NCBI GenBank assembly: GCA_040289515.1
Contig: PSLI01000004.1
Coordinates: 11,111 to 75,110 of the forward strand
Reading direction: 5' to 3'
Source of the DNA: Candidatus Sysuimicrobiota bacterium
GTDB lineage: Bacteria > Sysuimicrobiota > Sysuimicrobiia > Sysuimicrobiales > Sysuimicrobiaceae
DNA: 64,000 bases
In this document: positions 14,089-31,979 of the stretch, in pieces
Numbering within the stretch: the stretch's first letter is position 1
Layout of the letters: each line of letters starts with the position of its first letter
Made by a program: the position numbers and the translations under genes
Notes under the pieces: model-generated
Databases searched by the model: none
Seen by the model: only the letters and a program-made list of their open reading frames with translations
What the model was told of the DNA's origin: nothing

Positions 14089-15008
14089 CCCTGCGCGTTG
14101 GCACCCGAGCGAGCTCCCTCAGCCGCCTCCAGACGGACTGGGTCCTCAAGCAGCTACGATCCCTGGACCCGCGCGTGCGGTTCTCCGTGCTGCCCGTGCG
14201 CACCGCAGGAGACCGATCCGCTCGGCCCATCCCCGAGCTGGGCGGTGCCGGATGGTTCACGAAGGAGCTGGAACGCGCCCTGCTGGACGGCGTGGTGGAC
14301 CTGGTGGTGCACAGCCTGAAAGACTTGCCCACGGAGCCTACACCCGGGCTGGTGGTAGCCGCCGTGCCGCCCCGGGAGGACCCCAGGGATGCCCTGGTGG
14401 GTGCGTGGCCCAGCCTGGACGACCTGCCGGCGCAATCCCGTGTGGGGACCTCAAGCCCCCGGCGGAAGGCGCAGCTGCTGGCGTACCGCCACGACGTACA
14501 GGTCGTTCCCCTGCGCGGCAACGTGGACACCCGGTTGCGGAAGGTGGCTTTTGGGGAACCGAGCGCCGCGGTGCTGGCCGCCGCGGGCCTAGTGCGGGGC
14601 GGCTGGCAGGATCACATCCGTCAGCTCCTGGACCCGGACGTGATCCTGCCGGCACCCGGACAGGGGGCGCTGGCCGTCCAGGTGCGGGAGGCAGACCGGG
14701 CGCTGGTTGACCTCGTGGCCGGGCTGGACCACCCGCCCACGCACGCCGCCGTGCGGGCGGAGCGGGCATTCCTGAGGGCGTTGGGTGGCGGGTGCAGCTT
14801 GCCCGCGGCTGCCCTGGCGGAATTTCAGGAGGGGCGGCTGCGGCTGCGGGTTCGGGTGCTGTCGGAGGACGGCAGCCGTCAGGTGTCGGTGCAGCGCGAG
14901 GGCTCTTTGGACGAGCCGGAACGGTTGGGACAGCAAGCCGCAGCAGAGGTTCGTCCGTTTTTGGCCCTGGTGGGAGGCACGCGGTGGGTGCGCAGCGAGC
15001 CCCGCTAG
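14085..15008 (+). CDS. hemC: Hydroxymethylbilane synthase (porphobilinogen deaminase)
   Basis: LRVGTRASSLSRLQ start. TTG start overlaps the hemA stop. Confidence 0.9.
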   Translation: MTLRVGTRASSLSRLQTDWVLKQLRSLDPRVRFSVLPVRTAGDRSARPIPELGGAGWFTKELERALLDGVVDLVVHSLKDLPTEPTPGLVVAAVPPREDPRDALVGAWPSLDDLPAQSRVGTSSPRRKAQLLAYRHDVQVVPLRGNVDTRLRKVAFGEPSAAVLAAAGLVRGGWQDHIRQLLDPDVILPAPGQGALAVQVREADRALVDLVAGLDHPPTHAAVRAERAFLRALGGGCSLPAAALAEFQEGRLRLRVRVLSEDGSRQVSVQREGSLDEPERLGQQAAAEVRPFLALVGGTRWVRSEPR

Positions 15009-15769
15009 AGGGCCGCACGGTGCTGGTCACCCGACCCCAGGATCAGGCGCAGGGGCTACGGACAGCCCTGCAGGCTCTGGGGGCCACGGTGCACGCGGTG
15101 CCCGTGATCCGGATTCGCGCCCTGGAGGACCCAGGTGCGCTGCGCCGCGCCGCGAGCCAGCTGGGGACCTATCACTGGCTGGTGTTCACCAGCCGGAACG
15201 GTGTCTTTGCCCTCGCGGAGCAGCTGCCTTCCCCGGAGCCGCTGCCCGAGGGCGTGCGGGTGGCGTGCATCGGTCCGGCTACCGCGGAAGCCGTCCGGCA
15301 GCTGGGCTGGCCCGTGCACCTGCAGCCCAGCCAGTACGTGGCAGAGTCCCTGGTGGAGGCCTTCCAGGAGGTGGGGATGGGTGGCCGCCGGGTTCTCCTG
15401 GTTCGCGCACAGGAGGCGCGGGGCGCCCTACCCGAGGGCCTGCGCCGCCTGGGAGCCCAGGTGGAGGTGGTCTGCGCGTACCGCACGGAGCCTGCGTACA
15501 ATGAAGCGGGGCGCCTACAGGAGGTGCTGCGGCAGGGTGTGGACGTGACTACTTTCTGCAGCCCTTCCGCGGTGCGGGCCGCGGTGCAGCTGTGCGGGGG
15601 GGCAACGCTGCTCCTTGAGGCTGTGCCCGCGGTGTGCATCGGTCCGGTGACCGCCTCCGCCGCGCTTCGGGCGGGACTCCGGGTTGCGGCGGTAGCGCAC
15701 CCGCACACCCAGGAGGGGCTCGTGGAGGCGGTGGTACGTTTCGTGCGGGGACAAGGGGGGCAACCGTGA
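14984..15769 (+). CDS. hemD: Uroporphyrinogen-III synthase
   Basis: GRTVLVTRPQDQA...LVFTSRNGV. GTG 14984 overlaps the hemC 3' end. Start approximate. Confidence 0.7.
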   Translation: MGAQRAPLEGRTVLVTRPQDQAQGLRTALQALGATVHAVPVIRIRALEDPGALRRAASQLGTYHWLVFTSRNGVFALAEQLPSPEPLPEGVRVACIGPATAEAVRQLGWPVHLQPSQYVAESLVEAFQEVGMGGRRVLLVRAQEARGALPEGLRRLGAQVEVVCAYRTEPAYNEAGRLQEVLRQGVDVTTFCSPSAVRAAVQLCGGATLLLEAVPAVCIGPVTASAALRAGLRVAAVAHPHTQEGLVEAVVRFVRGQGGQP

Positions 15770-16746
15770 GCTTTCCCGCATACCGGAGCCGACGGTTGCG
15801 GCGCACGGAGGCACTCCGGCGCCTGTCCCGGGAGGTGGAGCTATCTAGCTCCCACCTCATCGCGCCCCTGTTCGTCAAGGAGGGCATCCCGAACCCCGTG
15901 CCCATCCCCTCCCTGCCGGGTCAGGTGCAGCACACCCTGTCCAGTCTCGTGCAGGAGGTGGGCGAGCTGGTGGAGCTGGGGGTAGGTGCGGTGATCCTGT
16001 TCGGGATCCCTGCCCACAAGGACCCGGTGGGAAGCGGTGCCTGGGACGACCAGGGGATCGTGCAGCGGGCCCTGCGGGCGCTGCGGTCGGAGTTCCAAGA
16101 CCGCGTGGTGCTGATGGCGGACCTGTGCCTGTGCGAGTACACCAACCACGGACACTGTGGGGTCCTGGCGGACGGCCCGGAGACGGTGGACAACGACCGC
16201 ACCCTGGAGCTGTACGCCCGCATCGCGACCAGCCAGGCCCGCGCGGGCGCGGACGTCATCGCGCCCAGCGGGGTGATGGACGGCCAGGTGGCCGCCATCC
16301 GCCGGGCCCTCGATGAGACGGGGTTCTCTCAGGTGGCCATCGTAAGCTACGCCGCCAAGTTTGCTTCGGCCTTCTACGGGCCGTTCCGGGAGGCCGCGGA
16401 GTCCGCGCCACGCTTTGGACACCGCCGAGCTTACCAGCTTGAGCCGGTCAACCTGCGGGCGGCGCTGCGCCGGGTGGCGGAGGAGGTGCAGGAGGGCGCG
16501 GACGCCGTGATGGTCAAGCCCGCCCTCCCGTACCTGGACGTGCTGCGGGAGGTGCGTCGACGCTTTTTCGTGCCCGTGGCCGCCTACTGCGTGAGCGGGG
16601 AGTACGCCATGGTGCACGCCGCGGCGCAGCGGGGCTGGCTGGATCTGGAATCTGCCATGATGGAGGTCCTGCTGTCCGTGCGGCGGGCGGGCGCGGATTG
16701 GATCCTCACGTACTTCGCCAAGGACGCGGCGCGGCACCTGCGGTGA
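15766..16746 (+). CDS. hemB: Porphobilinogen synthase (ALA dehydratase)
   Basis: GTG overlaps the hemD stop. Active-site lysine region PSGVMDG and CLCEYTNHGHCG. Confidence 0.9.
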   Translation: MSFPAYRSRRLRRTEALRRLSREVELSSSHLIAPLFVKEGIPNPVPIPSLPGQVQHTLSSLVQEVGELVELGVGAVILFGIPAHKDPVGSGAWDDQGIVQRALRALRSEFQDRVVLMADLCLCEYTNHGHCGVLADGPETVDNDRTLELYARIATSQARAGADVIAPSGVMDGQVAAIRRALDETGFSQVAIVSYAAKFASAFYGPFREAAESAPRFGHRRAYQLEPVNLRAALRRVAEEVQEGADAVMVKPALPYLDVLREVRRRFFVPVAAYCVSGEYAMVHAAAQRGWLDLESAMMEVLLSVRRAGADWILTYFAKDAARHLR

Positions 16747-18026
16747 GGCTGTCCTCCGAAGCCTTGTTCCAGCGGGCGCGGCAGGTGATGCCGGGGGGTG
16801 TCAGCAGCCCCGTGCGCGCCTTCCGCGCGGTAGGGGGCACGCCGCCGTTTTCGGTGCGAGGGATGGGCGCGTATGTGGTGGACGTGGAGGGCCGCCGCTA
16901 CGTGGACTGCGTGGGCTCGTGGGGTGCGCTGATCTTGGGCCACGCCCACCCCGCGGTGGTGCAGGCCGCGCAGGCGGCGGTGGCGGACGGCAGTAGCTTC
17001 GGGGCACCCACCCCGTGGGAGGTAGAGTTCTGTGAGCGCCTGTGCCGGGCCATCCCGGGCATGGAGCGGGTGCGGCTCGTGAACTCGGGTACCGAGGCGG
17101 TGATGAGCGCCGTGCGGGTGGCTCGCGCGGCCACGGGCCGTGAGGGGATCGTGAAGTTCGACGGGGGCTACCACGGGCACACAGACGCCCTCCTGGTGCA
17201 GGCGGGCTCCGGGGCGGCCACGTTCGGCGTGCCCGACAGCGCGGGCGTACCCGCCTCCGCGGTGCGGGCCTCCTTCTCCCTGCCGTGCAACGACCTGGAG
17301 GCGGCCCAGGCCCTGTTCCGGCATCGGGGCCACGAGATCGCGGCGGTCCTGGTGGAGCCCGTGGCGGGCAACATGGGGACGGTGGCCCCTCGGCCCGAGT
17401 TTCTGCAGGGGCTGCGCGCGCTCATCCAAGAGTACGGTGCGCTGCTGGTGCTGGAGGAGGTCATCACAGGCTTCCGCCTGCGCTCCGGGGCGGCGCAGGA
17501 CCTGTTTGGCGTGCGGGCCGACCTTGCGTGCTTGGGCAAGGTCATCGGCGGTGGGTTTCCCCTGGCCGCGTACGGGGGCAGGGCGGACCTCATGGGCTTG
17601 GTGGCCCCGGAGGGCCCCGTGTACCAGGCCGGAACCCTGTCGGGCAACCCTGTGGCCGTGCGGGCGGGCCTGGCCACCCTCCAGCAGCTGGAAGACGGAG
17701 GGGTGTACGGGCGGTTGGAGCAGCATGGTCGGATGCTGGAGGAGGGGCTGCAGGAGGCCGCCCGCAGGGCGGCTGTAGCCGTGCAGGTGAACCGCGTGGG
17801 CTCCATGCTGACGGTGTTTTTCTGCGCGCACCCGGTGGTGGACTTCGCCACGGCCCGGAAGTCCGACGGGGCCCGGTTCGCCCGCTTCTTCCACGCCATG
17901 CTGGAACGGGGGGTGTACCTGCCCCCCTCACCCTTCGAGTCGTGGTTCTTGTCCGCGGTCCACGGGACCCGGGAGGTGGCCCACATCCTGGCGGCCTCGC
18001 AGGAGGCGTTCCGGGAGGCGGCATGA
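16743..18026 (+). CDS. hemL: Glutamate-1-semialdehyde 2,1-aminomutase
   Basis: SEALFQRARQVMPGGVSSPVRAF. GTG overlaps the hemB stop. Confidence 0.9.
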   Translation: MRLSSEALFQRARQVMPGGVSSPVRAFRAVGGTPPFSVRGMGAYVVDVEGRRYVDCVGSWGALILGHAHPAVVQAAQAAVADGSSFGAPTPWEVEFCERLCRAIPGMERVRLVNSGTEAVMSAVRVARAATGREGIVKFDGGYHGHTDALLVQAGSGAATFGVPDSAGVPASAVRASFSLPCNDLEAAQALFRHRGHEIAAVLVEPVAGNMGTVAPRPEFLQGLRALIQEYGALLVLEEVITGFRLRSGAAQDLFGVRADLACLGKVIGGGFPLAAYGGRADLMGLVAPEGPVYQAGTLSGNPVAVRAGLATLQQLEDGGVYGRLEQHGRMLEEGLQEAARRAAVAVQVNRVGSMLTVFFCAHPVVDFATARKSDGARFARFFHAMLERGVYLPPSPFESWFLSAVHGTREVAHILAASQEAFREAA

Positions 18027-21040: not shown

Positions 21041-21673
21041 GTGGTCACGGAGGGGCTGGGCCGGCGTTTTGGGCCCGTGGTGGCGCTGCACGACGTCACC
21101 CTGCGGGTACAGCAGGGTCAGTGCCTGCTGCTGGTGGGGCCCAACGGCTCCGGGAAGACCACCCTGTTGCGGGTTCTGGCCACCGCGCTGCGCCCCACGG
21201 AGGGACGCGCGTGGGTGTGGGGCTATGAGGTGACCGCGGAAGGGTGGCGGGTGCGAGAGGTGTGCGCGTACCTGGGCACCGCCCCGGGGGTGTACGGGGC
21301 GCTTTCGGGCTTCGAGAACTTACGCCTGGCCGCGGACCTGTGCGGAAAGCCCGTTGGGCGTGTCCCTGAGCTGCTGGCGCGGGTCGGGCTGATGCCGGCG
21401 GCGCACCGGCTGGTGGCCAGCTACAGCCTCGGGATGCGCCGGCGGCTGGCCCTGGCCCGGGCCTTCCTGCAGGAGCCCCTGGTGGCGCTGTTGGACGAGC
21501 CTTTTGTGGGCCTGGATGAGGAGGGTCGGGAGCTGGTGCGGCAGCTGGTGGAGGAGGTCAAAAGCCGCGCTGGGGCCGTGGTTCTGGCCACTCACGACGG
21601 GGACCGGGCGCGGGGCCTGTACGACCGGGTCGTGTGCCTGGAGGCGGGCAGTTTGCGGGCAGCGGGCGGATGA
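21041..21673 (+). CDS. ccmA: Heme exporter ATP-binding protein CcmA
   Basis: Walker A GPNGSGKTT and ABC signature. Start ambiguous (TTG 20960, GTG 20984 or GTG 21041). Confidence 0.75.
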   Translation: MVTEGLGRRFGPVVALHDVTLRVQQGQCLLLVGPNGSGKTTLLRVLATALRPTEGRAWVWGYEVTAEGWRVREVCAYLGTAPGVYGALSGFENLRLAADLCGKPVGRVPELLARVGLMPAAHRLVASYSLGMRRRLALARAFLQEPLVALLDEPFVGLDEEGRELVRQLVEEVKSRAGAVVLATHDGDRARGLYDRVVCLEAGSLRAAGG

Positions 21674-22323
21674 GAGCAGCTCGCCGCGTCCTGGCCCTGG
21701 TGCGCAAGGATCTGGTGCTGGAGTGGCGGGGCAGGGACGTGCTGGTGCCCGCGGGTGCCTTCGGGCTCGCGGTGTTGCTGGTGCTGGGCCTGGTTTCCGG
21801 CGGCGGGCCGCAGGACGCGCCCACCTTACTGTGGGTTTCTGTGCTGCTGGCCTCCGTGCTGGCGGCGGGCCGCAGCGCGGAGCGGGAAGGAGAGGAGGGA
21901 ACGCTGGAAGTGCTGCTGCTGTACCCGGGCAGCCGCGAGGACCTGTTCTGGGGGCGACACCTGGCCCTGTGCGTGCTGCTGGGAGCGCTGGCTTTGGGCC
22001 TGTGGGCCGCACAGCTGTTCCTGTTCAACGCTCCGGCCCGCGGGTGGCCCGCCGTGCTGCTGGCGGGGACGCTGGCGACAGTGGGGCTGAGTGCGTCGGG
22101 CACCCTGCTGGCGGCCCTGCTGGGCCACGTGCGGGCGGGTCGGCTGCTGTTGCCCTTGCTGTTCTTGCCCACCTCGGTTCCCGTGCTGCTGGCCGGTGTG
22201 CGTCTCACGGAGGCGGCCGCCGCGGGCACCACACTCGGCCCGTGGTGGGGCGTGCTGGTGGTGTTCGACCTGTTGTTCCTGCTGGTGGGTCCCGTGCTGT
22301 TTGAGGTGGCGGTGGAGGGCTAG
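21670..22323 (+). CDS. ccmB: Heme exporter membrane protein CcmB
   Basis: ATG overlaps the ccmA stop as ATGA. Polytopic; CcmB position and length. Confidence 0.75.
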   Translation: MRAARRVLALVRKDLVLEWRGRDVLVPAGAFGLAVLLVLGLVSGGGPQDAPTLLWVSVLLASVLAAGRSAEREGEEGTLEVLLLYPGSREDLFWGRHLALCVLLGALALGLWAAQLFLFNAPARGWPAVLLAGTLATVGLSASGTLLAALLGHVRAGRLLLPLLFLPTSVPVLLAGVRLTEAAAAGTTLGPWWGVLVVFDLLFLLVGPVLFEVAVEG

Positions 22324-22962
22324 GTGCGGGCCTTCGCCATGGGCGCAACGGCGGCGCTGTTGGCCCTGGGGCTGTGGCTGGCCCTGAGAGCGTCTCCCCC
22401 AGACGCTTACCAGGGGGAATACGTGCGGATCATGTACGTGCACGTGCCTGCCGCCGTGTCCAGCTACGCCGCCGCAGCGGTGGCCTGCGTGAGCGGCGCC
22501 CTGTACCTGTGGCGGCGCCGGTCGGAGTACGACGCGTGGGCCCGTGCGGGGGCGGAGCTGGCCAGCTTGTTCGCGGGCCTCACCCTGCTGACCGGGATGC
22601 TGTGGGGCAAGCCCGTGTGGGGTGTGTGGTGGGCGTGGGATGCCCGGCTGGTCTCCACCGCGGTGCTGTTCCTGCTGTACGTGGGTTGCCTGCTGGTGCG
22701 GGACCTGTCGGAGGATCCGGTGCGCGGCCGCCGCCTGGCGGCGGCTTTGGGCGTGGTGGCCTTCCTAGACGTGCCGCTGGTGCACTACTCCGTGGTGTGG
22801 TTCCGAACGCTGCACCAGGGCCCCTCCATTAGACCTGGAGCCGTGCAGATGGCACCGGAGTTTTTGGCCCCCCTGGCGGTGAACGTGCTGGCCTACCTGG
22901 TGCTGTCGGGCTTCCTCCTGGTAGAACGGGCCCGCCTGGCGCGCCTGGAGGCGGAGCGGTGA
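22324..22962 (+). CDS. ccmC: Heme exporter protein CcmC
   Basis: WWD domain LWGKPVWGVWWAWDARL. Confidence 0.8.
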   Translation: MRAFAMGATAALLALGLWLALRASPPDAYQGEYVRIMYVHVPAAVSSYAAAAVACVSGALYLWRRRSEYDAWARAGAELASLFAGLTLLTGMLWGKPVWGVWWAWDARLVSTAVLFLLYVGCLLVRDLSEDPVRGRRLAAALGVVAFLDVPLVHYSVVWFRTLHQGPSIRPGAVQMAPEFLAPLAVNVLAYLVLSGFLLVERARLARLEAER

Positions 22963-23087
22963 GGGCTTGGGGGTGGGTGCTGGCCGCGTACGGATGCGCG
23001 GCCGTGCTGCTCGGAGCTTACGCGTGGCGGTTGTGGCGGCGTCTGGAGCGAGCCTCGGGTGGCCGTGCGAGGGAGGGCGACGCGTGA
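22959..23087 (+). CDS. ccmD: Heme exporter protein CcmD (42-aa small membrane protein, below the ORF-track cutoff)
   Basis: VRAWGWVLAAYGCAAVLLGAYAWRLWRRLE... is a single TM helix. GTG overlaps the ccmC stop. Correct position between ccmC and ccmE. Confidence 0.5.
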   Translation: MRAWGWVLAAYGCAAVLLGAYAWRLWRRLERASGGRAREGDA

Positions 23088-23092
23088 GGCGG

Positions 23093-23485
23093 ATGCGCGT
23101 GCTGTTGGCGGTGCTCCTGACCGCCGGGTCCCTGGGCTACGTGGTGGCCGGAGGGCTGCGGGAGGCGGTGGTGTACTACCTCACGCCCACGGAGGTGCGT
23201 TCCATGCGCCCGGAGCCCCACAGGCCCGTACGGGTGGGCGGGCAGGTACTGCCCGGCTCCCTGCGAAGGGAAGGGCCGGAGGTGCGCTTCATCCTCTGGG
23301 ACGGCCAGACCCAGCTGCCCGTACGCTTCCGGGGTACCGTGGAAGGGCTGCTAGCGGAGGCACAGGGCGCCGTGGTGGAGGGCCGGGTGGTGGAGGGGAT
23401 CCTCCACGCCCGCACCGTGGTGGTCAAGCACTCGGAGGAGTACACCCCGTCCCGAACTCCGCACGACCGCCCCCGCGGACCGTAA
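23093..23485 (+). CDS. ccmE: Cytochrome c-type biogenesis heme chaperone CcmE
   Basis: MRVLLAVLLTAG anchor, YYLTPTEV, VRVGGQV. The usual heme-binding H-x-x-x-Y region appears divergent. Confidence 0.75.
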   Translation: MRVLLAVLLTAGSLGYVVAGGLREAVVYYLTPTEVRSMRPEPHRPVRVGGQVLPGSLRREGPEVRFILWDGQTQLPVRFRGTVEGLLAEAQGAVVEGRVVEGILHARTVVVKHSEEYTPSRTPHDRPRGP

Positions 23486-23540: not shown

Positions 23541-23566
23541 CGGGGGCCACCGAGCCCCCGTTTGCG
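23541..23566 (+). terminator. Terminator-like hairpin after ccmE
   Basis: A perfect 7-bp G/C stem CGGGGGC-cgagc-GCCCCCG followed by TTTGCGTT. Confidence 0.3.
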
Positions 23567-23693
23567 TTCTGGGCCGAGACGAAGAGGAATCCGGGCACCG
23601 GAAGTCAAAGACACACGCCAGCTCCTCGGTCAGGGAGGCAGGTTGCTGCGACGCGAAGCCAGCTGTTCGTGCAACTGCAGGGTCCCAGGGAGC

Positions 23694-24545
23694 TTGCGAC
23701 TCTCTCTGTCGGTGGCGATGGCGGCGTGGGTGCTGGCGGGCTGCCAGCCGTACGTCCGGGTGAGCAGCCCCGTCCGGGAGGTCTACGAGCCCCTGGAGGG
23801 GTTCGCGGTGCGCATGAACTTCATGCCCCGCAAACCCGACGCGGACGGGGGCCGGAAGATCTACGAGGCGCGGTGCGCGGTCTGCCACGGACCGCAGGGG
23901 CGCGGGGACGGGCCCATGGCCCAGCAGCTCACGGCCCCGGAGAAGAACCCGTACACCGACTTTTTGAGCCTGTTCCGCATCCATCGCAAGGCGGAACCGT
24001 TGCCGAGCCGGCCCGCCCGGTTTGACAACCTGGATCAGATGCGGCTAAACGCCCCCTTCGCTATGTTCGAGACCATCGCCCGCGGGCGTCCCCACACCGC
24101 CATGCCCGGGTTCCAGCACCCCGCCTACGGTGCCACGGACGGCGGCGAGCCGCGCCTACGGGATCAGGAGATCTGGGACGTGCTGTTCTGGGAGTGGAGC
24201 CGCACCACCAGCCGGGAGCGCCTGGTGCAGGGCCGGCGGATCTACAACCAGCTGTGCGCCCGCTGCCACGGCGTAGGAGGGGACGGGAATGGGCCGGAGG
24301 CGGGCCGCATCCGGCAGCAAGTGTGGACGTGGGCGCGGGGCGTGGGGCCGGGTGTTTTCACGGACCGGGACTGGATGGCGTACCGCAAGCCCACGGAGCT
24401 GTACCAGCGGATTTCAGAAGGGGTGCGGCGGCGAGGGCTGGAGCTGATGCCGGCCTACGCCGACAAGCTGTCGGCGGACCAGATCTGGACCGTGGTAGAG
24501 TACCTGTGGACGTTCGTGTACACACCCCCGAAGGACCTGCGGTAG
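23694..24545 (+). CDS. Diheme c-type cytochrome, probable lipoprotein
   Basis: Two CxxCH motifs (CAVCHG, CARCHG). A TTG start at 23694 gives a lipobox LAGC. The alternative ATG at 23718 is in the same frame. Confidence 0.75.
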   Translation: MRLSLSVAMAAWVLAGCQPYVRVSSPVREVYEPLEGFAVRMNFMPRKPDADGGRKIYEARCAVCHGPQGRGDGPMAQQLTAPEKNPYTDFLSLFRIHRKAEPLPSRPARFDNLDQMRLNAPFAMFETIARGRPHTAMPGFQHPAYGATDGGEPRLRDQEIWDVLFWEWSRTTSRERLVQGRRIYNQLCARCHGVGGDGNGPEAGRIRQQVWTWARGVGPGVFTDRDWMAYRKPTELYQRISEGVRRRGLELMPAYADKLSADQIWTVVEYLWTFVYTPPKDLR

Positions 24546-24556
24546 GAGGTGGCCGG

Positions 24557-25201
24557 GTGGATCGTCGCACGTTCTTAAAGGCCCTGAGCGCGCTGCCCGT
24601 GGTGGGGGCTGTGGGAGCCTTCCTGGCGCCCTTGCTGCGCTACCTGAAGCCGAACCTGGAACGGGGACTGGGCCTGCCGCAGGGGAAGCTACCGCCCGAC
24701 CTGGCGGAGGGGGACCTCCCCACGGGCGAGCCGCTGCCCATCGCTACCTTGGAGGAGCTGCGGGAACCGTGGTCCAGCAAGTTCTTCGTGTTCACGCAGA
24801 AGTACCCACAGTACACCCCGGAGCTGGCCAAGGCGGCCACGGTGCCGGGGGTGGCCATCAAGCTGCCGTGGAAGCTGCCCTTTCCGGGCTACAAGGGAGG
24901 GAAGGAGCCCACGGACATCGTGATCTTCTCCCGCATCTGTCCGCACCTGGGCTGCATCTTCAACTACGTGCCCAACTGGCGGGAGGTGACGGCGGGCTAC
25001 GGGGGCTACGTACCGCCGGAGGACCGGCGGCACGGGCTGCTCGCGTGCCCGTGCCACCTGTCCATCTACGATCCCGCGGACCGGGAACTTCCTGGCCGGG
25101 TGCTGTCGGGCCCCGCGCCCCGGCCGCCCCGCTACTTCACCTACGAGATCCGGGGCGGGGTGATCGTGGTCACCGGGGCGGAACCCGGCGGGATCGCCTG
25201 A
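24557..25201 (+). CDS. Rieske [2Fe-2S] protein with Tat signal
   Basis: RRTFLKAL twin-arginine motif. CPHLGC and CPCHLS cluster-binding boxes. RBS AGGAGG. Confidence 0.85.
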   Translation: MDRRTFLKALSALPVVGAVGAFLAPLLRYLKPNLERGLGLPQGKLPPDLAEGDLPTGEPLPIATLEELREPWSSKFFVFTQKYPQYTPELAKAATVPGVAIKLPWKLPFPGYKGGKEPTDIVIFSRICPHLGCIFNYVPNWREVTAGYGGYVPPEDRRHGLLACPCHLSIYDPADRELPGRVLSGPAPRPPRYFTYEIRGGVIVVTGAEPGGIA

Positions 25202-25214
25202 GGGAGCCGGAGCC

Positions 25215-26363
25215 GTGTGGGACCGGTTGCGAGAGTGGTTCCGGGAGCGCAAGGAAAAGCTGGACCTGTTCGACGAGACCCACGTCGACCGCCAGGACAA
25301 CCCCCTGTACATCCTCGGCCAGATCGTCTACTTCGCGTGGATCGCCGTGGTGGTAAGCGGCATCCTCCTCATGATCTGGTACGAGCCTACCACCCACGGC
25401 GCGTACAACTCCATTCTGCGCATCCAGCGGGAGGTGCCCCTGGGTTGGCTGACCCGCGGCGTGCACAAGTACGGCGCGGACATGCTGATCCTGGCCATCA
25501 CCCTGCGCATCTACCGGATGTATTTCCTGGGAGAGTACAAACGGCCCAACGAACTGTCGTGGATGATCCTGTTCGGCTCCCTGGTGCTGGCCATGATCTC
25601 CGGGCTCACGGGCTACCTGCTCATCTGGAACCAGCGGGCCTTCTGGGCGGCCAAGGTGGTGCTCACGGTGGCCGTGTACCTGGACCAGCTCCCCCTGATC
25701 GGCCAAACGCGGTTCGGCAGCGCCATCGCCTTCGCCTTCCTGGGCGGGCCGGCGGAGGGGCAGGGAACCCTCACCCGGTTCTACGCCATCCACTTCGGGA
25801 TCTCCGCGCTGCTGCTGGTGGCCTCGGAGGTGTACTTCTACTTCACCCGCCGGCGCCGGTTCGTCCTGTCCCCCACGGCCCTGGTGATCCTGCTGGCTAT
25901 GCTGGTGGTAACGAGCTACGTGTTCCCCGCAGAGATGGGCCGCCGGGCCGACCCCAACCGCACGCCCCTGCCCATCCTGTCCGACTGGTACTTCCTGGCC
26001 CTGTACCAGTACGTGAAGTATACCCCGCCCCTGTGGGCGGGCCTGGGCCCCGGGCTTTTGATCGCTTACGGCATGCTGGTCCCCTTTTTGGACCGCAGCA
26101 AGGGCCGCAGGCCCTCCGAGCGCCCCTTCTTCACGGTGGTGGGGGTCATGGCCCTGACGTACTTCCTCGTGTTCACGGCCCTCATCCTGTTCAACATCGC
26201 GGTGATCGGCCGGGATCCCCACGTGGTCCTACTGGTGACCGCGGCGACTTTGACCCTGGGCCTGGTGCTGGAGTTCCGCTACCGGCGACGGAAGAAGCTG
26301 GCGGAGCTCGCCGCACCGACTCCCGCGCCGCGCGCGGCGCCAGCTCGGGCCGCGGCGGGGTGA
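25215..26363 (+). CDS. Cytochrome b (full-length b6 plus subunit-IV-like) lacking both heme bH histidine ligands
   Basis: Collinear with cytochrome b6 (GWLTRGVHKYGADM..., TRFYAIHFG...). Helix B has H84 but R98 at the second His position. Helix D has H193 but Y207/F208 where the second His is expected. SDWY sits in place of PEWY. Confidence 0.85.
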   Translation: MWDRLREWFRERKEKLDLFDETHVDRQDNPLYILGQIVYFAWIAVVVSGILLMIWYEPTTHGAYNSILRIQREVPLGWLTRGVHKYGADMLILAITLRIYRMYFLGEYKRPNELSWMILFGSLVLAMISGLTGYLLIWNQRAFWAAKVVLTVAVYLDQLPLIGQTRFGSAIAFAFLGGPAEGQGTLTRFYAIHFGISALLLVASEVYFYFTRRRRFVLSPTALVILLAMLVVTSYVFPAEMGRRADPNRTPLPILSDWYFLALYQYVKYTPPLWAGLGPGLLIAYGMLVPFLDRSKGRRPSERPFFTVVGVMALTYFLVFTALILFNIAVIGRDPHVVLLVTAATLTLGLVLEFRYRRRKKLAELAAPTPAPRAAPARAAAG

Positions 26364-26370
26364 GGGGGCG

Positions 26371-26634
26371 TTGGAAGTCGTGCGGTTCGCGGCAAGCTTC
26401 GGTGTGGCCGTGTTGAGCCTGCACGGAGCCTGGCAGGCATTCGGGCTGGCTTGGGCGGACCCACGGGCGGAGCGCTGGCTCGTCCTGGGCGTGTACCTGG
26501 CCGCCCTGCTGGCCTCAGGAGCATGGGCGGGCTACCTCGTCTACGCCGCGGACCGCAGGGCGGGACGGGTGCGGCGACGGGTGGGGCTGTACGAGCGGTG
26601 GCTGGCAACGCCTCGGGGAGGGAGGGGGCCGTGA
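26371..26634 (+). CDS. Small two-TM membrane protein
   Basis: 87-aa hydrophobic ORF immediately after cytochrome b. Confidence 0.4.
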   Translation: MEVVRFAASFGVAVLSLHGAWQAFGLAWADPRAERWLVLGVYLAALLASGAWAGYLVYAADRRAGRVRRRVGLYERWLATPRGGRGP

Positions 26635-26831
26635 GGAAGGACCGCAGCACATGGCACTTCGCCCTGGCCGGTTTCCTGGCGGTGCTGGCCCTAGCCGGAG
26701 TGGCCCTTATGGTGTACGGGGAGTGGTTTGACCAGCGGCTGGTGGCCTCCGGGGCCCTGGGCGTGATCCTGGTTTTGTACGCGGCCATCGTAGTGCTGTT
26801 CCGGAAGGCGGGTCTCACCGCGGAGGAGTAG
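26631..26831 (+). CDS. Small two-TM membrane protein
   Basis: 66 aa, VRKDRSTWHFALAGFLAVLALAGVALMVYGEW... GTG overlaps the preceding stop as GTGA. Confidence 0.4.
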   Translation: MRKDRSTWHFALAGFLAVLALAGVALMVYGEWFDQRLVASGALGVILVLYAAIVVLFRKAGLTAEE

Positions 26832-26832
26832 G

Positions 26833-28008
26833 GTGTACCGACGGCTGCTTTTGAGCCTGCAGAGCGCCACCCTGAGGCTGGACACCGTCCTAAACCGCGT
26901 CCTGCCCCAGGACTTCAACCCCCTGTACTACACGGGCGGGCTTGCGAACCTGTTCCTCACCATCCTGGTGGTGTCGGGGATCCTCATTTTCCTGTACTAC
27001 GAGCCCAGCCTGGAGGGCGCGTACGCCTCCGTGGAGTTCCTGACCCGGGACGTGCCCTACGGGGTGGTGTTCCGGGGGATCCACCGGTACGCCGCGGACG
27101 CCTACATGGTGGCGATCCTGCTGCACCTGTTCCGCAACTGGTTCACGGACCGCTACCGGGAGGCGCGGGACAGCCAGTGGCTGTCGGGCATGTTCCTGCT
27201 GGTGGTCTCGGGCTTTGCGGGCTTCACGGGCTACCTGCTGGTGTGGGACGAGCGAGCCCAGCTGCTTACAAGCCTCACGGCGCAGGCCCTACGGTCGGTG
27301 CCCCTGGTGGGAGGCTGGCTGGCCCGGGTGTTCCTGGGCGGGCCGGGTGTGAGCGACACGACCCTGTCCCGGTTCCTGTACCTGCATGTGGGGCCCGCCA
27401 TGACCGTGTACGTGCTCCTGTGGTGGCACTACGTACGCCTGCGCCACCCCAAGATCTGGCCTCCCGCGGTGTGGGTGCTGTTCAGCCTGGGCCTGCTGTT
27501 CATCCTCGCCTCCGCGCTGCCCGCGGCCAGCGGCCGTCCCGCGCAGCCGGGCGCGACCCCGGGGGGGTTCGCGGTGGATTGGTTCTTCCTCTGGCCGTAC
27601 GTGCTCGCCCGGTGGCTGGCGCCAGCCTGGGCCATGGTCCTGGTGGGAGCCCTTGTGGCGTACGGCATGGTCATCCCCTACACCCTACGGGAGACGCCCG
27701 AGCAGCGCGGCCTGCGGGCCCTGGGCCAGGCGGTGGTGGTGGAGGAGAACTGCACCGGCTGCGAGCTGTGCTACTACGACTGCCCGTACAACGCCATCTA
27801 CATGGTACCCAGTCCCTACCCCGGCAAGAGCCGGGCCGCGGCCAACCGCAAGCTGCTGGCGGTGGTGGTGGACTCCCGGTGTGTGGAGTGCGGGATCTGC
27901 ATCGGCGCCTGCCCGTTCGAGGCGCTGGAGCTGCCCAGGATGCTGGAAAAGGACGTGCAGCAGAGAATCCGGCGGGGCGCCCAGGTGGAGGCGCCCGTCC
28001 CTTCGTGA
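26833..28008 (+). CDS. Cytochrome b N-terminal domain (four His ligands intact) fused to a C-terminal 2x[4Fe-4S] ferredoxin domain
   Basis: H84/H98 and H185/H199 are at canonical spacing in helices B and D. The C-terminus carries CTGCELCYYDCP and CVECGICIGACP. Confidence 0.8.
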   Translation: MYRRLLLSLQSATLRLDTVLNRVLPQDFNPLYYTGGLANLFLTILVVSGILIFLYYEPSLEGAYASVEFLTRDVPYGVVFRGIHRYAADAYMVAILLHLFRNWFTDRYREARDSQWLSGMFLLVVSGFAGFTGYLLVWDERAQLLTSLTAQALRSVPLVGGWLARVFLGGPGVSDTTLSRFLYLHVGPAMTVYVLLWWHYVRLRHPKIWPPAVWVLFSLGLLFILASALPAASGRPAQPGATPGGFAVDWFFLWPYVLARWLAPAWAMVLVGALVAYGMVIPYTLRETPEQRGLRALGQAVVVEENCTGCELCYYDCPYNAIYMVPSPYPGKSRAAANRKLLAVVVDSRCVECGICIGACPFEALELPRMLEKDVQQRIRRGAQVEAPVPS

Positions 28009-28017
28009 GGCGCAGCC

Positions 28018-28452
28018 ATGGGGACAGCACCGGAGCGCACCCCGCAAGCCAATCCCCAAGGACCGGCGCGGGTGGTGGGGTTTTTGTGTGACTGGGCGGT
28101 GCGCAGCGAGGGACTGCTGAACGCGGACGACACCCTGGTGGGCATGCCCCACGTGACCGTGATCCGGGTGCCCTGTTCCGGTTTCGTAAAGCCCGCGTGG
28201 CTGGAGCTGGCCCTGCGCAGTGGTGCTGCGGGCACCTTCGTGTGCGGGTGCCCCATGGGCGACTGCCTGAACCGGGAGGGTAACTGGATCATGGAGGGCC
28301 GCATCGACCAGCTGCGCAAGCGGCTGAGCCGCCAGAAGGTGGATCCCGACCGGGTGGCCTTTTTCGCCTTCGGGCTGCACGAGCGGGAGGCCTTCCTTCA
28401 AGCCGTGGCGGAGTTCGTGAACAGGCTCGCCGGATCCGGAGGGAACCGGTGA
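28018..28452 (+). CDS. MvhD/FlpD-like iron-sulfur protein (methyl-viologen-reducing hydrogenase delta-subunit family)
   Basis: FLCDWA, VIRVPCSGFV and FVCGCPMGDC cysteine pattern typical of PF02662-type proteins. Confidence 0.65.
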   Translation: MGTAPERTPQANPQGPARVVGFLCDWAVRSEGLLNADDTLVGMPHVTVIRVPCSGFVKPAWLELALRSGAAGTFVCGCPMGDCLNREGNWIMEGRIDQLRKRLSRQKVDPDRVAFFAFGLHEREAFLQAVAEFVNRLAGSGGNR

Positions 28453-28565
28453 TGCGGTTCGGCCCGAAGCGGTGGAAGACGTACCTGTGGTACGTTGTCT
28501 TCTACCTCCTGTTCTTCGCCCTGCTCCTGTTCGTAGCCGCCTTCGGGTTGGTGGCGGAGGCGTAG
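28452..28565 (+). CDS. Unannotated 37-aa single-TM peptide
   Basis: MRFGPKRWKTYLWYVVFYLLFFALLLFVAAFGLVAEA. ATG overlaps the MvhD-like stop as TGATG. It is absent from the ORF track because it is under 60 aa. A CcoQ-like position. Confidence 0.4.
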   Translation: MRFGPKRWKTYLWYVVFYLLFFALLLFVAAFGLVAEA

Positions 28566-28579
28566 GGCGGGAGGGTCGC

Positions 28580-29974
28580 ATGCTGGTGTGGATGTTCACG
28601 GACGAGCGGTGGAGTTCTGCCCGCAGGTTCCTGTACGCGGGCACCCTGTGGGCGCTGGTGGCCCTGGCGTACGAGGCCCTGGCGGCCGCCCAGCGGGCGT
28701 GGCCGGCCCTGCTGTCGGAGTTTCCATGGGCTTCCCACGGGCGGGTGGTGGCCTTAAGCCACGACCTGTGGGTTTTCGGCTTTTTGTCCCAGCTGCTGGT
28801 GGCCTCGGCCCTGCGGGTGATGGGGCAGACGGACCGGGAGGGGATCTGGAGCGAGCCCGTAGCGCACCTGGCTGTTTGGCTGTGGAACCTAGCCCAGGCC
28901 CTGAGCTGGTGGTGGCTGTCGGTGGGCTGGACCCGGGGAAGGCCGCTGGCGGAGGCCCCGTGGCCGGTGGACGGGCTGCGTGTGCTGGCCGCTTTGGCGC
29001 TGTGGTGGGTGGTGCGCAACAGCCTGGTTCGGTCGTCCCGGCGGGAAGCTGGCTTGGCCCTGGTGGCGGTGGCCTTCGCGGGTCTGCCGCTGGTGCTGGT
29101 GCTGGGCAAGGGGCTGTTCTCGCCCTTCGACAACCCTTACCACGGCCTCCTGGACGCCCTGAGCCAGGCCTTCCTGCGGGCGGGCTTGGTGTGGCTGTGG
29201 CTAGTACCTCTGGCGGGCGGTGTGTCTTTGTACGTGCTGTCCGCCCTTACGGGCCGGCCGGGTCTGTCGGAGGGCATGGGCCTTTCGGCGGTGGTGGGGC
29301 TGGTGAGCTTTGGCGCCCTGGCGGGGCCTGCGGAGTTTGTATGGGGCCCGGTCCCCTTCTGGGTGCAGACCGTGGGCACCGTGGCGCGGGGCCTGCTGCT
29401 GCTGCCCGCGGCGACCCTCCTGGCCGGCGTGGTTCGGTCCCTGGACGGCCATTGGCGCAGCCTGGGGAACCACCCGGGCGTGGTGCTCACCCTGGCGGGA
29501 TGGCTCGCGGTGTTCTGCGGGGCGGCGGCGGACGCCCTCGCCTCCCTGGTGGGGCCCAGCCGGCTGGTGCACCTGTCCCTGTGGGGTGAGGGTGTTCGGG
29601 TGCTCCTGCTGACCGGCGCGGGTGCGGTGGCCGCCGGATGCGTGTACCTGTTGACCCCTCATGTGCTGGGCCGATCCCTGGTCAGCAGGGCTGCCGCGTG
29701 GCGCCACCTCTGGCTGGTGGTGGTGGGATGGTCGCTTTCCGCCCCCTTCCTTCTGCTGGGCGGGTTGGTGCAGGGTGCGGTGTGGGTCACGGGCACAGTC
29801 CCCTTCGCGCACGCGGTGCAGGCCGTGCGGCCCTTGCTGGGGGGGGGCTTTGTGGGCCTGCTGGTGGCGTGGGCCGCGCAGGGAGTGTTCGCGTGGAATG
29901 TGTTCCTGACCGCGGACTCCGGGGAGCCCGTGCCCGCCGCAGAGCAGGAGCTGGCCGCGGTGGCGGGGTCCTGA
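28580..29974 (+). CDS. Polytopic (about 12 TM) membrane protein in the CcoN/NorB position, with no canonical heme-copper-oxidase metal ligands
   Basis: ATG 28580 is preceded by GGGAGGG. 464 aa, Trp-rich. The single His residues do not form the HH and HxH ligand pattern of HCO subunit I. Confidence 0.55.
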   Translation: MLVWMFTDERWSSARRFLYAGTLWALVALAYEALAAAQRAWPALLSEFPWASHGRVVALSHDLWVFGFLSQLLVASALRVMGQTDREGIWSEPVAHLAVWLWNLAQALSWWWLSVGWTRGRPLAEAPWPVDGLRVLAALALWWVVRNSLVRSSRREAGLALVAVAFAGLPLVLVLGKGLFSPFDNPYHGLLDALSQAFLRAGLVWLWLVPLAGGVSLYVLSALTGRPGLSEGMGLSAVVGLVSFGALAGPAEFVWGPVPFWVQTVGTVARGLLLLPAATLLAGVVRSLDGHWRSLGNHPGVVLTLAGWLAVFCGAAADALASLVGPSRLVHLSLWGEGVRVLLLTGAGAVAAGCVYLLTPHVLGRSLVSRAAAWRHLWLVVVGWSLSAPFLLLGGLVQGAVWVTGTVPFAHAVQAVRPLLGGGFVGLLVAWAAQGVFAWNVFLTADSGEPVPAAEQELAAVAGS

Positions 29975-29989
29975 GGTGCAGGAGGTGTC

Positions 29990-30451
29990 GTGGTGAGGGA
30001 TCCCGTAGCGCACCTGGTGCGACTGGCGGTGGCGGCCGTGCTGTGCGGGTTCGTGGCCACCGTGCTCCTGCCAGCGTTGGACCCCGCGGTGCGCACGGCG
30101 CGGGCAGCGCCCCTGTCGGCGCAGGCGGCGCGGGGACGGTGGGTGTACGCCCGGGAGGGGTGTGCGGCCTGTCACACCCAGCAGGTGCGTACGGTGGAGG
30201 CGGGGTTCGGCATGGTGCGCCGGAGGGGCGACGTGGGAGAGGCTTCCTCGCCAAGCCAGTACGCGGGGCAGGACCCGGCCCTGTTGGGGCGGCTGCGGAT
30301 GGGGCCGGACCTGACGCACGTGGCCTCCCGTGCCTCCGCGGAAGAGCTGCGTTCGCTAGTTCGGTCCGGCACGGGAGGGATGCCCGCGTACCGGCACCTG
30401 CCCGATCCGGAACTGGCGGACCTCGTGGCGTACCTGCTGACCCTGCGATAG
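29990..30451 (+). CDS. CcoO/NorC-like membrane-anchored monoheme cytochrome c
   Basis: GRWVYAREGCAACHTQQVR matches the CcoO GxxVYxxEGCxxCHSQ signature. A downstream ...GPDLTHV...GMPAY box and an N-terminal TM anchor are present. Confidence 0.6.
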   Translation: MVRDPVAHLVRLAVAAVLCGFVATVLLPALDPAVRTARAAPLSAQAARGRWVYAREGCAACHTQQVRTVEAGFGMVRRRGDVGEASSPSQYAGQDPALLGRLRMGPDLTHVASRASAEELRSLVRSGTGGMPAYRHLPDPELADLVAYLLTLR

Positions 30452-30459
30452 GAGGAAGG

Positions 30460-30999
30460 ATGGAGGCCCAAACGCCGCGACCGTCCCGCTGGCTGGCGCT
30501 GCTGTACGTGCTGCTGCCTCTGTGGGCAGTGACGTACCTGTTCGTGGCGGGAGGACTGGTGGCTCCGGAGGTCCGGCCGGTGGCCCGGAACGTGGAGGGC
30601 GTCTCGGCGGGTGTCGGCGCGGCACCGGACGGGTCCGAGCAGGTGCTGGGGATCCTCGAGGTGGTGCCTGAGGACGCGCGGGACGACCAGCCGCCCCGTC
30701 CGGTTACCGCGGCCATGCTGGCGCAGGCGAAGGCACGGTACGACACCCTGTGCGCCGTCTGCCACGGCCCGGAAGGCCGGGGCGACGGCCCCGCGGGCGC
30801 GGCTCTTAACCCCAAGCCGGTCAACTTCCATTTCCGCGCTTTCCAGGAGCGCATGCCCGTGGGTGCCACGCACTGGGTGATCAAGAACGGCCTGGGTAAC
30901 ACCGCCCGCCGCAGCGGGATGCCCGCCTTTGGCCAGCTGCCTGACGACCAGATCTGGGCCCTGGTGGAGTACATACGGCGGCTGGGCCGCCGGCCATGA
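30460..30999 (+). CDS. Membrane-anchored monoheme class-I cytochrome c
   Basis: CAVCHG heme site, GMPAF Met-ligand region, N-terminal TM helix. RBS GGAGGAAGG. Confidence 0.75.
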   Translation: MEAQTPRPSRWLALLYVLLPLWAVTYLFVAGGLVAPEVRPVARNVEGVSAGVGAAPDGSEQVLGILEVVPEDARDDQPPRPVTAAMLAQAKARYDTLCAVCHGPEGRGDGPAGAALNPKPVNFHFRAFQERMPVGATHWVIKNGLGNTARRSGMPAFGQLPDDQIWALVEYIRRLGRRP

Positions 31000-31979
31000 G
31001 CGCTCCCGCCAACCCCGACGTGGCCCTGGCGTCCGCGTATGCACCGGTTCGGGAGGACTTGGAGCGCCTGCAGGCCCTCCTGCAGGAGGAGCTCGCGTCC
31101 CACGACCCCTTCCTGCGCGAGCTGGTGTCCCACGTGCTGCAGACGAGGGGCAAGATGGTGCGGCCGGCTCTGGCGTTCCTCTGCGCGCGGCTCGCGGGCG
31201 GAGGAGGCGCCCACCGGGACCTGGTGGCCGCGGCGGTGGAGCTCATCCACGTGGCCAGCCTGATCCACGACGACGTCATCGACGAGGCGGACCGGCGCCG
31301 GGGCCAGGCCACCCCCAACGCCCGCTGGGGCAACCACGTGGCGGTGCTTCTGGGCGACTACCTGTTCAGCAAGGCTTTCCACCTCCTCAGCCGGGTGGGC
31401 CGGGACGACGTGGCCAGCCGGGTGGCGTTCGCCACCGTGCGCATGAGTCAGGCGGAGCTGCTGCAGGTGAAGTATGGCAGTACCCCCCACACGGACGAGT
31501 CGGTGTACTTCGCCATCGTGGAGGGGAAGACCGCCCAGCTGGTCTCCTCCGCGTGTGCGGGAGGGGTCCTGGTGGGCGGGGGTGACGGCGGCCTGGCGGA
31601 TCGGCTTGGCACCTTTGGGCTGCACTGGGGAGTAGCCTTCCAGATCACCGACGACACCCTGGACCTCACCAGCGACCCGGAGGTCCTGGGCAAGCCCATC
31701 GGTAGCGACGTGCGGGGGGGCAAGGTCACCCTACCCCTCATCCACGCCCTGCGCCACGCGGACTCCCAAGACCGCCAGCGGCTGGAGGCTTGGATCCGCT
31801 TGGGGGAGCTGGAACCCTTGCGGCAGGCCCTGGAGCGGTCCGGATCCCTCGCCTACGCCCTGGAGGTGGCCCGGCAGCATGCCCGCAGGGCCCTGCGGAT
31901 CCTGGACACCCTGCCCAGCAGCCCCGAACGCGACAGCCTCGCAGCCCTTACGGAGTTCGTGGTCTCCCGCCACCATTAG
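30996..31979 (+). CDS. Polyprenyl diphosphate synthase (hepta/octaprenyl type)
   Basis: LIHDDVIDEADRRRG and FQITDDTLD DDxxD boxes. ATG overlaps the previous stop. Confidence 0.85.
   Translation: MSAPANPDVALASAYAPVREDLERLQALLQEELASHDPFLRELVSHVLQTRGKMVRPALAFLCARLAGGGGAHRDLVAAAVELIHVASLIHDDVIDEADRRRGQATPNARWGNHVAVLLGDYLFSKAFHLLSRVGRDDVASRVAFATVRMSQAELLQVKYGSTPHTDESVYFAIVEGKTAQLVSSACAGGVLVGGGDGGLADRLGTFGLHWGVAFQITDDTLDLTSDPEVLGKPIGSDVRGGKVTLPLIHALRHADSQDRQRLEAWIRLGELEPLRQALERSGSLAYALEVARQHARRALRILDTLPSSPERDSLAALTEFVVSRHH

Follow-up and report, generated by a model that had tools for sequence, protein, structure and literature searches.

A CcoN-like protein without haem and copper ligands in a Rieske/cytochrome b operon of Candidatus Sysuimicrobiota

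The DNA considered here, a window of 64,000 nucleotides (nt) from contig PSLI01000004.1 of a Candidatus Sysuimicrobiota bacterium (assembly GCA_040289515.1), carries on its + strand a four-gene module that looks like the genes of a cbb3-type haem-copper oxidase (HCO). The protein in the place of the catalytic subunit, 464 amino acids (aa) long, has none of the six histidines that are the signature of such enzymes, and the question is therefore what the protein is and what its module may do. All coordinates are positions within the window; L0xx denotes loci of relatives and P0xxx homologous proteins.

The four genes, which the initial annotation had placed at 28452-30999, are all present on the + strand. 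They encode a one-helix peptide (28449-28565; 38 aa if translated from GTG 28449, a possible start, or 37 aa from ATG 28452), the 464-aa CcoN-like membrane protein with 12 helices (28580-29974), a CcoO/FixO-type membrane-anchored monohaem cytochrome c of 153 aa (29990-30451) and a membrane-anchored monohaem cytochrome c of 179 aa that resembles one half of CcoP (30460-30999). A resemblance to ccoQ-N-O-P had been proposed for this arrangement. With respect to gene order it stands: as in the CcoNOQP oxidase of P. stutzeri (3mk7/5djq), a small peptide, an N-like protein, an O-like protein and a c-type cytochrome are encoded together. The resemblance is only partial because the last gene encodes a monohaem protein, whereas CcoP is dihaem.

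Homology and fold of the 464-aa protein

Judged by its sequence and its predicted fold, the 464-aa protein is a descendant of CcoN, the catalytic subunit of cbb3-type HCOs. It scores 69.5 bits against Pfam PF00115 (COX1; gathering cut-off 34.8) over residues 14-420, and in a pairwise HMMER comparison P. stutzeri CcoN (3mk7_A) matches it over its full length at E 5e-21. The CcoN subunits of three solved cbb3 oxidases give full-length matches with E values of 4e-21 to 3e-13 (residues 11-451 at 4e-21 to 5e-21). An AlphaFold2 model made with 21 homologues (predicted local distance difference test [pLDDT] 86.8, predicted template modelling score [pTM] 0.89) has 12 long transmembrane helices. When this model is compared with the PDB by Foldseek, cbb3 CcoN chains rank first (template modelling [TM] scores of 0.84-0.87, E down to 6e-19), followed by NorB (4xyd_A and 3o0r_B; TM about 0.79) and then by A- and B-family subunit I.

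The initial annotation had hesitated between a degenerate, repurposed or very divergent oxidase relative and an unrelated protein sitting beside a CcoO homologue, and had suggested profile and Foldseek searches of 28580-29974. These searches show the former option to be right: the COX1 threshold is passed, the match to CcoN is full length and the model superposes best on CcoN. The idea of an unrelated protein is rejected because the Pfam threshold is passed and CcoN is the best match in both sequence and fold. Membership of another family (e.g. NnrS or a transporter) was ruled out on the same searches, as only COX1/ccoN models match and the top structures are all HCO subunit I. Neither the 464-aa protein nor its partner passes the NCBIfam equivalog cut-offs for a cbb3 oxidase: the score against ccoN (TIGR00780) is 78.9 bits vs a cut-off of 583, and that of the FixO-like protein against ccoO is 37 bits vs 201. 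The 464-aa protein is 100% identical to a database 'hypothetical protein' of a candidate division GAL15 bacterium; GAL15 (CSP1-3) corresponds to Sysuimicrobiota.

The 464-aa protein is under purifying selection. Comparison with five orthologues (61-77% identical) gives ratios of non-synonymous to synonymous substitution rates (dN/dS) of 0.18-0.33, and the ratio between two close orthologues is 0.12. A pseudogene is ruled out by these values together with the conservation of the protein.

Missing cofactor ligands and a wider ligand-less family

Specialists regard the six histidines of subunit I as an invariant signature of the HCO superfamily. Their columns are numbered here according to P. stutzeri CcoN, residues 12-465 of which were rebuilt from a printed alignment; for known residues, the numbering obtained in this way agrees with the published one. 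H207, H257 and H258 are named as CuB ligands in PMC3578206, where W203 is also confirmed. In the profile alignment, the columns H60/H207/H257/H258/H345/H347 hold S/A/A/E/V/V in the 464-aa protein, or 0/6 histidines. The cross-linked Y251 is replaced by G (G, A or T in relatives), W203 by A and E323 by A. In contrast to these nine residues, by whose absence the protein differs from cbb3 CcoN, the structural residues R55, E125, W267, H384 and Q406 are retained; those that the 464-aa family shares with true CcoN are mainly Gly, Pro and Trp, plus R55, E125, Q406 and H384. The positions of T215, Y223, S240, H243, Y317 and N333, which we take to line the proton-input (K-type) channel of cbb3 oxidases, are occupied by V, L, G, A, V and S.

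The initial annotation had reported no HH or HxH pair, and a search of the raw sequence agrees: neither motif occurs anywhere in the 464 residues. The ten histidines of the protein are residues 53, 61, 96, 188, 291, 298, 331, 361, 376 and 411. Pairwise HMMER places H61 opposite H60, but this position is S, Q, H, W, R, L or V across the family, so H61 is not a conserved ligand. The sole conserved histidine in a membrane helix is H376 (P. stutzeri H384, which is conserved in true CcoN), and it lies outside the six ligand columns; the membrane helices contain no conserved Met, Lys or Cys. The ligand columns are free of histidine in all 22 close and distant orthologues, and each of 119 homologues of a more distant relative, P0039 (see below), has 0-2 of the six. 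The absence of the ligands is therefore not an alignment or sequencing artefact. A mis-registered alignment that hides the histidines was ruled out by four approaches (raw motif search, pairwise HMMER, MAFFT, and profile alignment with the rebuilt numbering), and no alignment recovers the six histidines.

Given the chemistry known for the family, it follows that haem b, haem b3 and CuB cannot be bound by this protein as they are in any known HCO, and that it can reduce neither O2 nor NO. The gene is annotated as an oxidase but is almost certainly not one.

The 464-aa protein is no one-off: it belongs to a large and diverse family that is maintained by selection. When the family profile was searched against 1.84 billion cluster representatives, 2917 proteins were found at E < 1e-3 and 429 at E < 1e-30. 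Of 173 aligned sequences (151 of the best database cluster representatives, 21 close relatives from the family and the window protein), only 20 have all six histidines and 5 have five, whereas none is found at these columns in 111. A separate search began from P0039, which is linked to alternative complex III (ACIII); all of the 119 homologues examined have 0-2/6 histidines, and R55 is present in 113, E125 in 118 and H384 in 118. The ligand-less CcoN-like set includes >100 clusters at 50% identity from several phyla. Where names are given, these proteins are annotated as 'cbb3-type cytochrome c oxidase subunit I', and they come from Armatimonadota, Verrucomicrobiae, Methylomirabilota, Mycobacteriales and Frankiaceae metagenome-assembled genomes (MAGs). 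We propose to group them by four features: the fold is that of COX1, at most two of the six histidines are present, R55, E125 and H384 are kept, and a FixO-like protein is encoded immediately downstream or fused; the window protein has each of these features.

In a neighbour-joining tree, the fully liganded sequences fall in two places and the partly liganded ones are scattered. This tree is too crude to separate one loss of the histidines from several, so we draw no conclusion on that point. Partial ligand sets occur in the CcoN-like proteins P0047, P0169, P0027, P0030 and P0044. P0047 keeps H60, H345, H347 and the CuB ligand H207, with Q and Y at the CuB ligands H257 and H258. Such proteins may represent a stage between working oxidases and the forms without ligands, or else be enzymes whose metal site differs. 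The searchable literature, subscription-only papers excepted, yielded no account of a ligand-less CcoN family, which does not prove novelty. Homology to CcoN is in itself ordinary; what is out of the ordinary is the total loss of the redox centres in a widespread, selected family with a fixed place beside ACIII or Rieske/cytochrome b genes.

Genetic partners, proposed function and alternatives

The module belongs to a tightly packed respiratory operon (23562-31979, + strand), in which genes overlap or are separated by gaps of 0-15 nt. Upstream of the module, this operon encodes a dihaem cytochrome c (23562-24545), a Rieske iron-sulfur protein (24557-25201), two cytochromes b (no. 1, 25215-26363; no. 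2, fused to a 2x[4Fe-4S] ferredoxin domain, 26833-28008) and a FlpD/MvhD-like iron-sulfur protein (28018-28452). All 11 related loci, among them loci of the genera Candidatus Tepidifontimicrobium and Candidatus Sysuimicrobium from this phylum, share the order of the 11 genes that run from the dihaem to the final monohaem cytochrome c.

Partnership with a haem-binding CcoO homologue is genetically obligate: a FixO-like gene lies directly downstream of the ligand-less CcoN-like gene in every locus long enough to show it. The seven FixO-like copies that were aligned represent four contexts, and each retains CxxCH and the MPxY methionine motif. The COX1-like domain without ligands is naturally fused to FixO in five of the cluster representatives, and in one to a cupredoxin. 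The window's own FixO-like protein (29990-30451) contains EGCAACHTQQVR and scores 49 bits against Pfam FixO (cut-off 29.6). Like cbb3 CcoO, it keeps CxxCH and the Met (CAACH and MPAY, aligning with FixO-like partners from other phyla), but it falls some 50-60 residues short of the length of the CcoO family profiles, which have 212-232 positions, and covers positions 7-116 of 219 in Pfam FixO and 16-148 of 212 in NCBIfam PRK14487. The following cytochrome (30460-30999) has an N-terminal hydrophobic helix as membrane anchor and a single CxxCH (CAVCH). It scores 46 bits against Pfam Cytochrome_CBB3; its NCBIfam ccoP match is weak (25 bits), and that to cytochrome 579 is better (63 bits). No ccoGHIS genes for assembly and copper delivery were found among the window open reading frames (ORFs) scanned.

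The one-helix peptide occupies the ccoQ position of ccoNOQP-type clusters. Its sequence (..RFGPKRWKTYLWYALFYLLFFALLLFVAAFGLVAEA) is kept in 11/11 related loci when the upstream region is translated (10/11 by tblastn), even where the CcoN-like protein is only 45% identical, and it has no match in Pfam or NCBIfam.

Linkage to a quinol-oxidising complex is also found outside this phylum. Five distant ligand-less relatives end ACIII operons with the order ActA-B-C-D-E-F, a one-helix protein of ~125 aa, COX1-like, FixO-like and cytochrome c. The one-helix protein, which is conserved and always lies between ActF and the COX1-like gene, is 121-128 aa long (L014 7622-7990, L016 7570-7935, L017 3427-3801, L019 3434-3820 and L020 1242-1619). 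Its copies end in ..KNP.A.RS.L..R..KA...PP.AP..P..(Y/F)(E/D), except for that of L019, where this ending is absent; the protein matches nothing in Pfam and does not resemble the small proteins encoded in the window operon.

Mycobacteriales/Frankiaceae-type MAGs (L022 1181-5677 and 5827-12130; also L003 and L021) have a Rieske/b6/subunit IV/cytochrome c operon with extra genes for a 117-aa 2x[4Fe-4S] ferredoxin and a 104-aa membrane protein. This operon is divergent from ResA-CcdA-ResB-CcsA genes followed by a ligand-less COX1-like/FixO pair. Given these actinobacterial loci, the window's three-way association of a ferredoxin module, Rieske/cytochrome b and ligand-less CcoN/CcoO recurs in another phylum. 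The cupredoxin fusion, P0124 (L021 5020-7104), has a C-terminal plastocyanin/azurin-like domain and is situated between a Rieske/b6-type gene set and a caa3-type COX2 gene, which follows it directly. In all of the sampled contexts, then, a CcoN without ligands is accompanied by an electron-carrier domain on the periplasmic side and has a quinol-oxidising complex encoded nearby.

Constraint within the 464-aa protein follows a pattern that is unusual for an HCO. Positions at least 90% conserved make up 55% of the periplasmic-side loops, compared with 18-31% of the helices and 25% of the cytoplasmic-side loops. Conserved motifs in the periplasmic-side loops are WxSHGR, GWTRGR..GEAPWP.D, LGKGLF.PF.NPY.G..DAL.QAF, FVWGPVPFW.QTVG and QGA.W.TGTVPF; in cbb3 oxidases, the periplasmic face is the one that carries CcoO. 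The CcoN-like and CcoO-like proteins are the fastest-evolving and least conserved of the operon (46% and 50% identity to their L001 counterparts, vs 90% for cytochrome b, 80% for the Rieske protein and 79% for the cytochrome b-ferredoxin fusion), and for this reason a scaffold fits better than a catalytic subunit.

Our preferred interpretation, which we hold with about even confidence, is that the 464-aa protein has no catalytic role and serves as a membrane platform for periplasmic-side cytochromes c, by which electrons are relayed out of a quinol-oxidising complex. The CcoO-like cytochrome c, the other membrane-anchored cytochrome c of the module and the 38-aa peptide would bind to its conserved periplasmic-side loops. 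The resulting haem c module would sit beside the quinol-oxidising Rieske/cytochrome b complex encoded upstream, or beside ACIII in other phyla, and would receive electrons from the Rieske/dihaem cytochrome c branch or, in ACIII-linked members, from ActA/ActE. High-potential electrons would then go on to a separate terminal acceptor, in Sysuimicrobiota most plausibly an A-family oxidase (coxABC). The module may be the remnant of a complex III-cbb3 supercomplex, in which the oxidase chemistry was lost and the scaffold and cytochromes c were kept.

Several known systems share part of this arrangement. The nitric oxide reductase that relies on cytochrome c (cNOR, NorBC) likewise combines a 12-helix subunit and a monohaem cytochrome c anchored in the membrane, and NorB is the next-best fold after CcoN. 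However, NorB keeps the six histidines, of which the 464-aa protein has none, and sequence similarity to NorB is below that to CcoN. NorB also carries FeB glutamates, and none is present here. As in the eNOR, bNOR, sNOR, gNOR and nNOR families described by Murali et al. 2024 (PMC11214002), mining has turned up HCO members that have non-canonical active sites and are annotated as oxidases; those families keep their haems and metal site, whereas the 464-aa protein has all six histidines replaced. According to this HCO survey, a single gNOR substitution is the only exception to complete conservation of the active-site histidines in all families. In complex III-cbb3 and ACIII-oxidase supercomplexes (6xkw and 8smr; ACIII-caa3/aa3, PMC5928083), a quinol:cytochrome c oxidoreductase is coupled to an HCO both physically and genetically; the linkage seen here is genetic. 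The HCO partner in those supercomplexes is a working oxidase, in contrast to the large subunit of the module, which has no redox centre, so the electron transfer chain must end elsewhere. Mitochondrial bc1 core proteins descend from a processing peptidase. The 464-aa protein, whose structural role is putative, resembles them as an enzyme fold kept under purifying selection after its chemistry was lost, an analogy that implies no homology.

A number of observations weigh against a periplasmic-side platform. Physical contact with the Rieske/cytochrome b complex or ACIII is something that we infer from gene order only, and the onward electron acceptor is a guess. The cytoplasmic N-terminus (MLxWMFTDExWS) and C-terminus (WNVFLTxDSGEPVPAAE) are conserved, which a periplasmic-side scaffold does not explain. 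Twelve helices are a costly means of anchoring cytochromes that have membrane helices of their own, hinting at a further role. In a sparse published metatranscriptome table (PMC11604079), 'ccoN' is at 0 transcripts per million (TPM) in 12/12 columns, and petB is detected in 10/12. Expression is unproven given these zero values, though the table is too sparse to settle the matter.

In one alternative, the module would run in the opposite direction. Its c-haems would collect electrons from periplasmic donors and pass them, driven by the membrane potential, to cytochrome b no. 2, [4Fe-4S] and FlpD, yielding low-potential reductant in the cytoplasm, or would form the high-potential arm of a quinol-based bifurcating Rieske/cytochrome b complex. 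The two cytochromes b of the operon, one without N-side ligands and the other with four histidines and 2x[4Fe-4S] followed by FlpD/MvhD, are consistent with such a scheme. So are the recurrence of a ferredoxin module, Rieske/cytochrome b and ligand-less CcoN/CcoO in Actinomycetota MAGs, the presence of a conserved CcoN-like cytoplasmic tail in these two lineages and not in the ACIII-linked ones, and the description of the phylum, in PMC11604079, as chemoautotrophic with H2 or sulfide as donors. We nevertheless consider reverse flow or bifurcation unlikely. Most sampled members follow ACIII operons that have no cytoplasmic ferredoxin or FlpD module, and for that reason this cannot be the function of the family as a whole. 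A quite unlikely role is that of an ion- or proton-conducting or coupling subunit, independent of redox chemistry (cf. the antiporter-like subunits of complex I and the NrfD-like subunits of ACIII), which would add charge translocation to the neighbouring quinol oxidiser. The entire 12-helix fold is kept at high model confidence, beyond what a docking surface needs; the polar residues R55, E125, Y363, H384, Q406 and N454, in or near helices, hardly vary among the ligand-less groups and true CcoN; and a buried Arg or Lys is often found at or beside the former H345/H347. Yet the conserved charged or polar residues do not form an unbroken series across the membrane, and conservation within the protein is lowest in the helix cores.

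The location of the genes raises a different suggestion, that the protein handles cytochrome c or haem as a chaperone, assembly platform or haem-delivery partner and is not a permanent respiratory subunit. The actinobacterial gene comes immediately after the ResA-CcdA-ResB-CcsA maturation genes, and in the window the operon forms one block with ccmABCDE (ccmA implied only) and hemA, hemC, hemB and hemL. We judge this improbable: the four c-type cytochromes of the operon also explain the clustering with maturation genes, ACIII-linked members are not adjacent to such genes, and the FixO and cupredoxin fusions favour a permanent partnership. It is very improbable that the protein is still an O2 or NO reductase with metal ligands other than histidine, even though CcoN is its closest relative in sequence and fold and HCOs with altered sites exist (e.g. 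gNOR with Asp for one His, and His/Met or His/Lys haems; PMC11214002). At the six ligand positions the residues are A, S, G, V, E or Q and differ among close relatives, no Met, Lys, Cys or Tyr is conserved there or next to them, Y251, W203 and E323 have been lost, and the NCBIfam ccoN equivalog score is 79 bits vs a cut-off of 583. A functionless, decaying relic carried along in the operon might be suspected from the position of the 464-aa protein as the least conserved of the operon and from the 0 TPM for 'ccoN' in the PMC11604079 metatranscriptome table, but is scarcely credible. The ORF is intact in every locus with dN/dS of 0.12-0.33, the motifs of the periplasmic-side loops hardly change even where overall identity drops to 45%, and the family persists across several phyla in >100 clusters at 50% identity.

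Beyond the platform proposed for the window protein, a broader reading seems to us possible but on balance doubtful. Cofactor-free CcoN paralogues would form a widespread and unrecognised HCO branch, the first without any of the redox machinery of subunit I, and would act as obligate structural subunits linking a cytochrome c relay with a quinol oxidiser, be it ACIII or Rieske/cytochrome b. Their partner in Sysuimicrobiota and in some Actinomycetota would be a Rieske/cytochrome b complex of a new kind that sends its second electron through a cytochrome b-[4Fe-4S]-MvhD arm to the cytoplasm, in a bifurcating or reverse-flow manner. If this is true, surveys that count the gene as ccoN, and hence as high-affinity O2 respiration, would be wrong for many uncultured lineages. 

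For the ligand-less family as described above, the annotation 'cbb3 subunit I' (KEGG K00404) in MAGs of Sysuimicrobiota, Verrucomicrobiae, Methylomirabilota and Mycobacteriales/Frankiaceae, and in those labelled Armatimonadota, cannot be taken as a sign of microaerobic respiration. PMC11604079 scores the 464-aa gene as ccoN (K00404, cbb3 oxidase subunit I) in nearly all MAGs; in its supplementary table, nearly every MAG has one 'ccoN', one 'ccoO', no ccoP, two petB and 1-3 copies of coxABC. Should the ligand-less reading hold, Sysuimicrobiota would have no cbb3-type oxidase and A-family oxidases only. The protein would be a natural case of a respiratory enzyme turned pseudoenzyme subunit, bearing on the evolution of supercomplexes and on the non-catalytic contribution of the HCO scaffold. 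The fixed place of these genes after ACIII and ferredoxin-bearing Rieske/cytochrome b complexes points to uncharacterised exits from the quinol-oxidising step.

The operon and its surroundings

Each of the four module genes is preceded by a Shine-Dalgarno-like GGAGG motif 5-10 nt upstream of its start. For the one-helix peptide the motif reads GGAGGG, and its start overlaps the stop codon of the FlpD/MvhD-like gene, the product of which matches Pfam FlpD with 87.6 bits. At the other end of the module, the start of a polyprenyl diphosphate synthase gene (30996-31979, + strand) overlaps the stop codon of the 30460-30999 cytochrome c gene, an instance of translational coupling; a Pfam polyprenyl_synt domain is found at the same position in L001 and L002.

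The dihaem cytochrome c, the first gene of the operon, has two cytochrome c domains according to Pfam and keeps its position in all related loci. The Rieske protein is predicted to be exported by the twin-arginine translocation (Tat) pathway: it has a twin-arginine signal and a GTG start at 24557 with GGAGG upstream. Its CPHLGC and CPCH boxes are separated by about 30 residues, and it falls below the Pfam Rieske threshold (16.8 vs 20.3 bits). Cytochrome b no. 1 matches Pfam Cytochrome_B and Cytochrom_B_C and has R (helix B) and Y/F (helix D) in place of both N-side haem (bH) histidines; it is the most conserved protein of the operon despite their absence. Cytochrome b no. 2 matches Pfam Cytochrome_B and Fer4 families and has four haem histidines. 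With its two cytochromes b, the operon looks like that of a Rieske/cytochrome b complex that would send the second electron to the cytoplasm and not to a Qi site.

Between the two cytochrome b genes are ORFs for two small membrane proteins, at 26371-26634 and approximately 26631-26831 on the + strand; the second has a GTG start at 26631 with GGGAGG upstream. The genes overlap by 4 nt in the window and in close relatives, and in the L001/L002 lineage, which is more distant, one ORF of 145 aa takes their place (L001 5822-6259).

Elsewhere in the window are several long ORFs whose codon usage is gene-like but which match no Pfam family at E 1e-5 or better (51511-54167 on the + strand, and 54796-56175 and 60154-61194 on the - strand). 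Upstream of the operon, and on the same strand, are the haem biosynthesis genes hemA (12790-14088), hemC (14085-15008), hemB (15634-16746) and hemL (16698-18026). They are followed at 21634-23485 by the cytochrome c maturation genes ccmB, ccmC, ccmD and ccmE, also on the strand of the Rieske/cytochrome b operon; ccmA is presumed to be in the window because L001 has an ABC_tran-CcmB gene, and was not itself mapped there. The hem and ccm genes, the Rieske/cytochrome b operon and the polyprenyl synthase gene together constitute a long one-strand block of respiratory genes.

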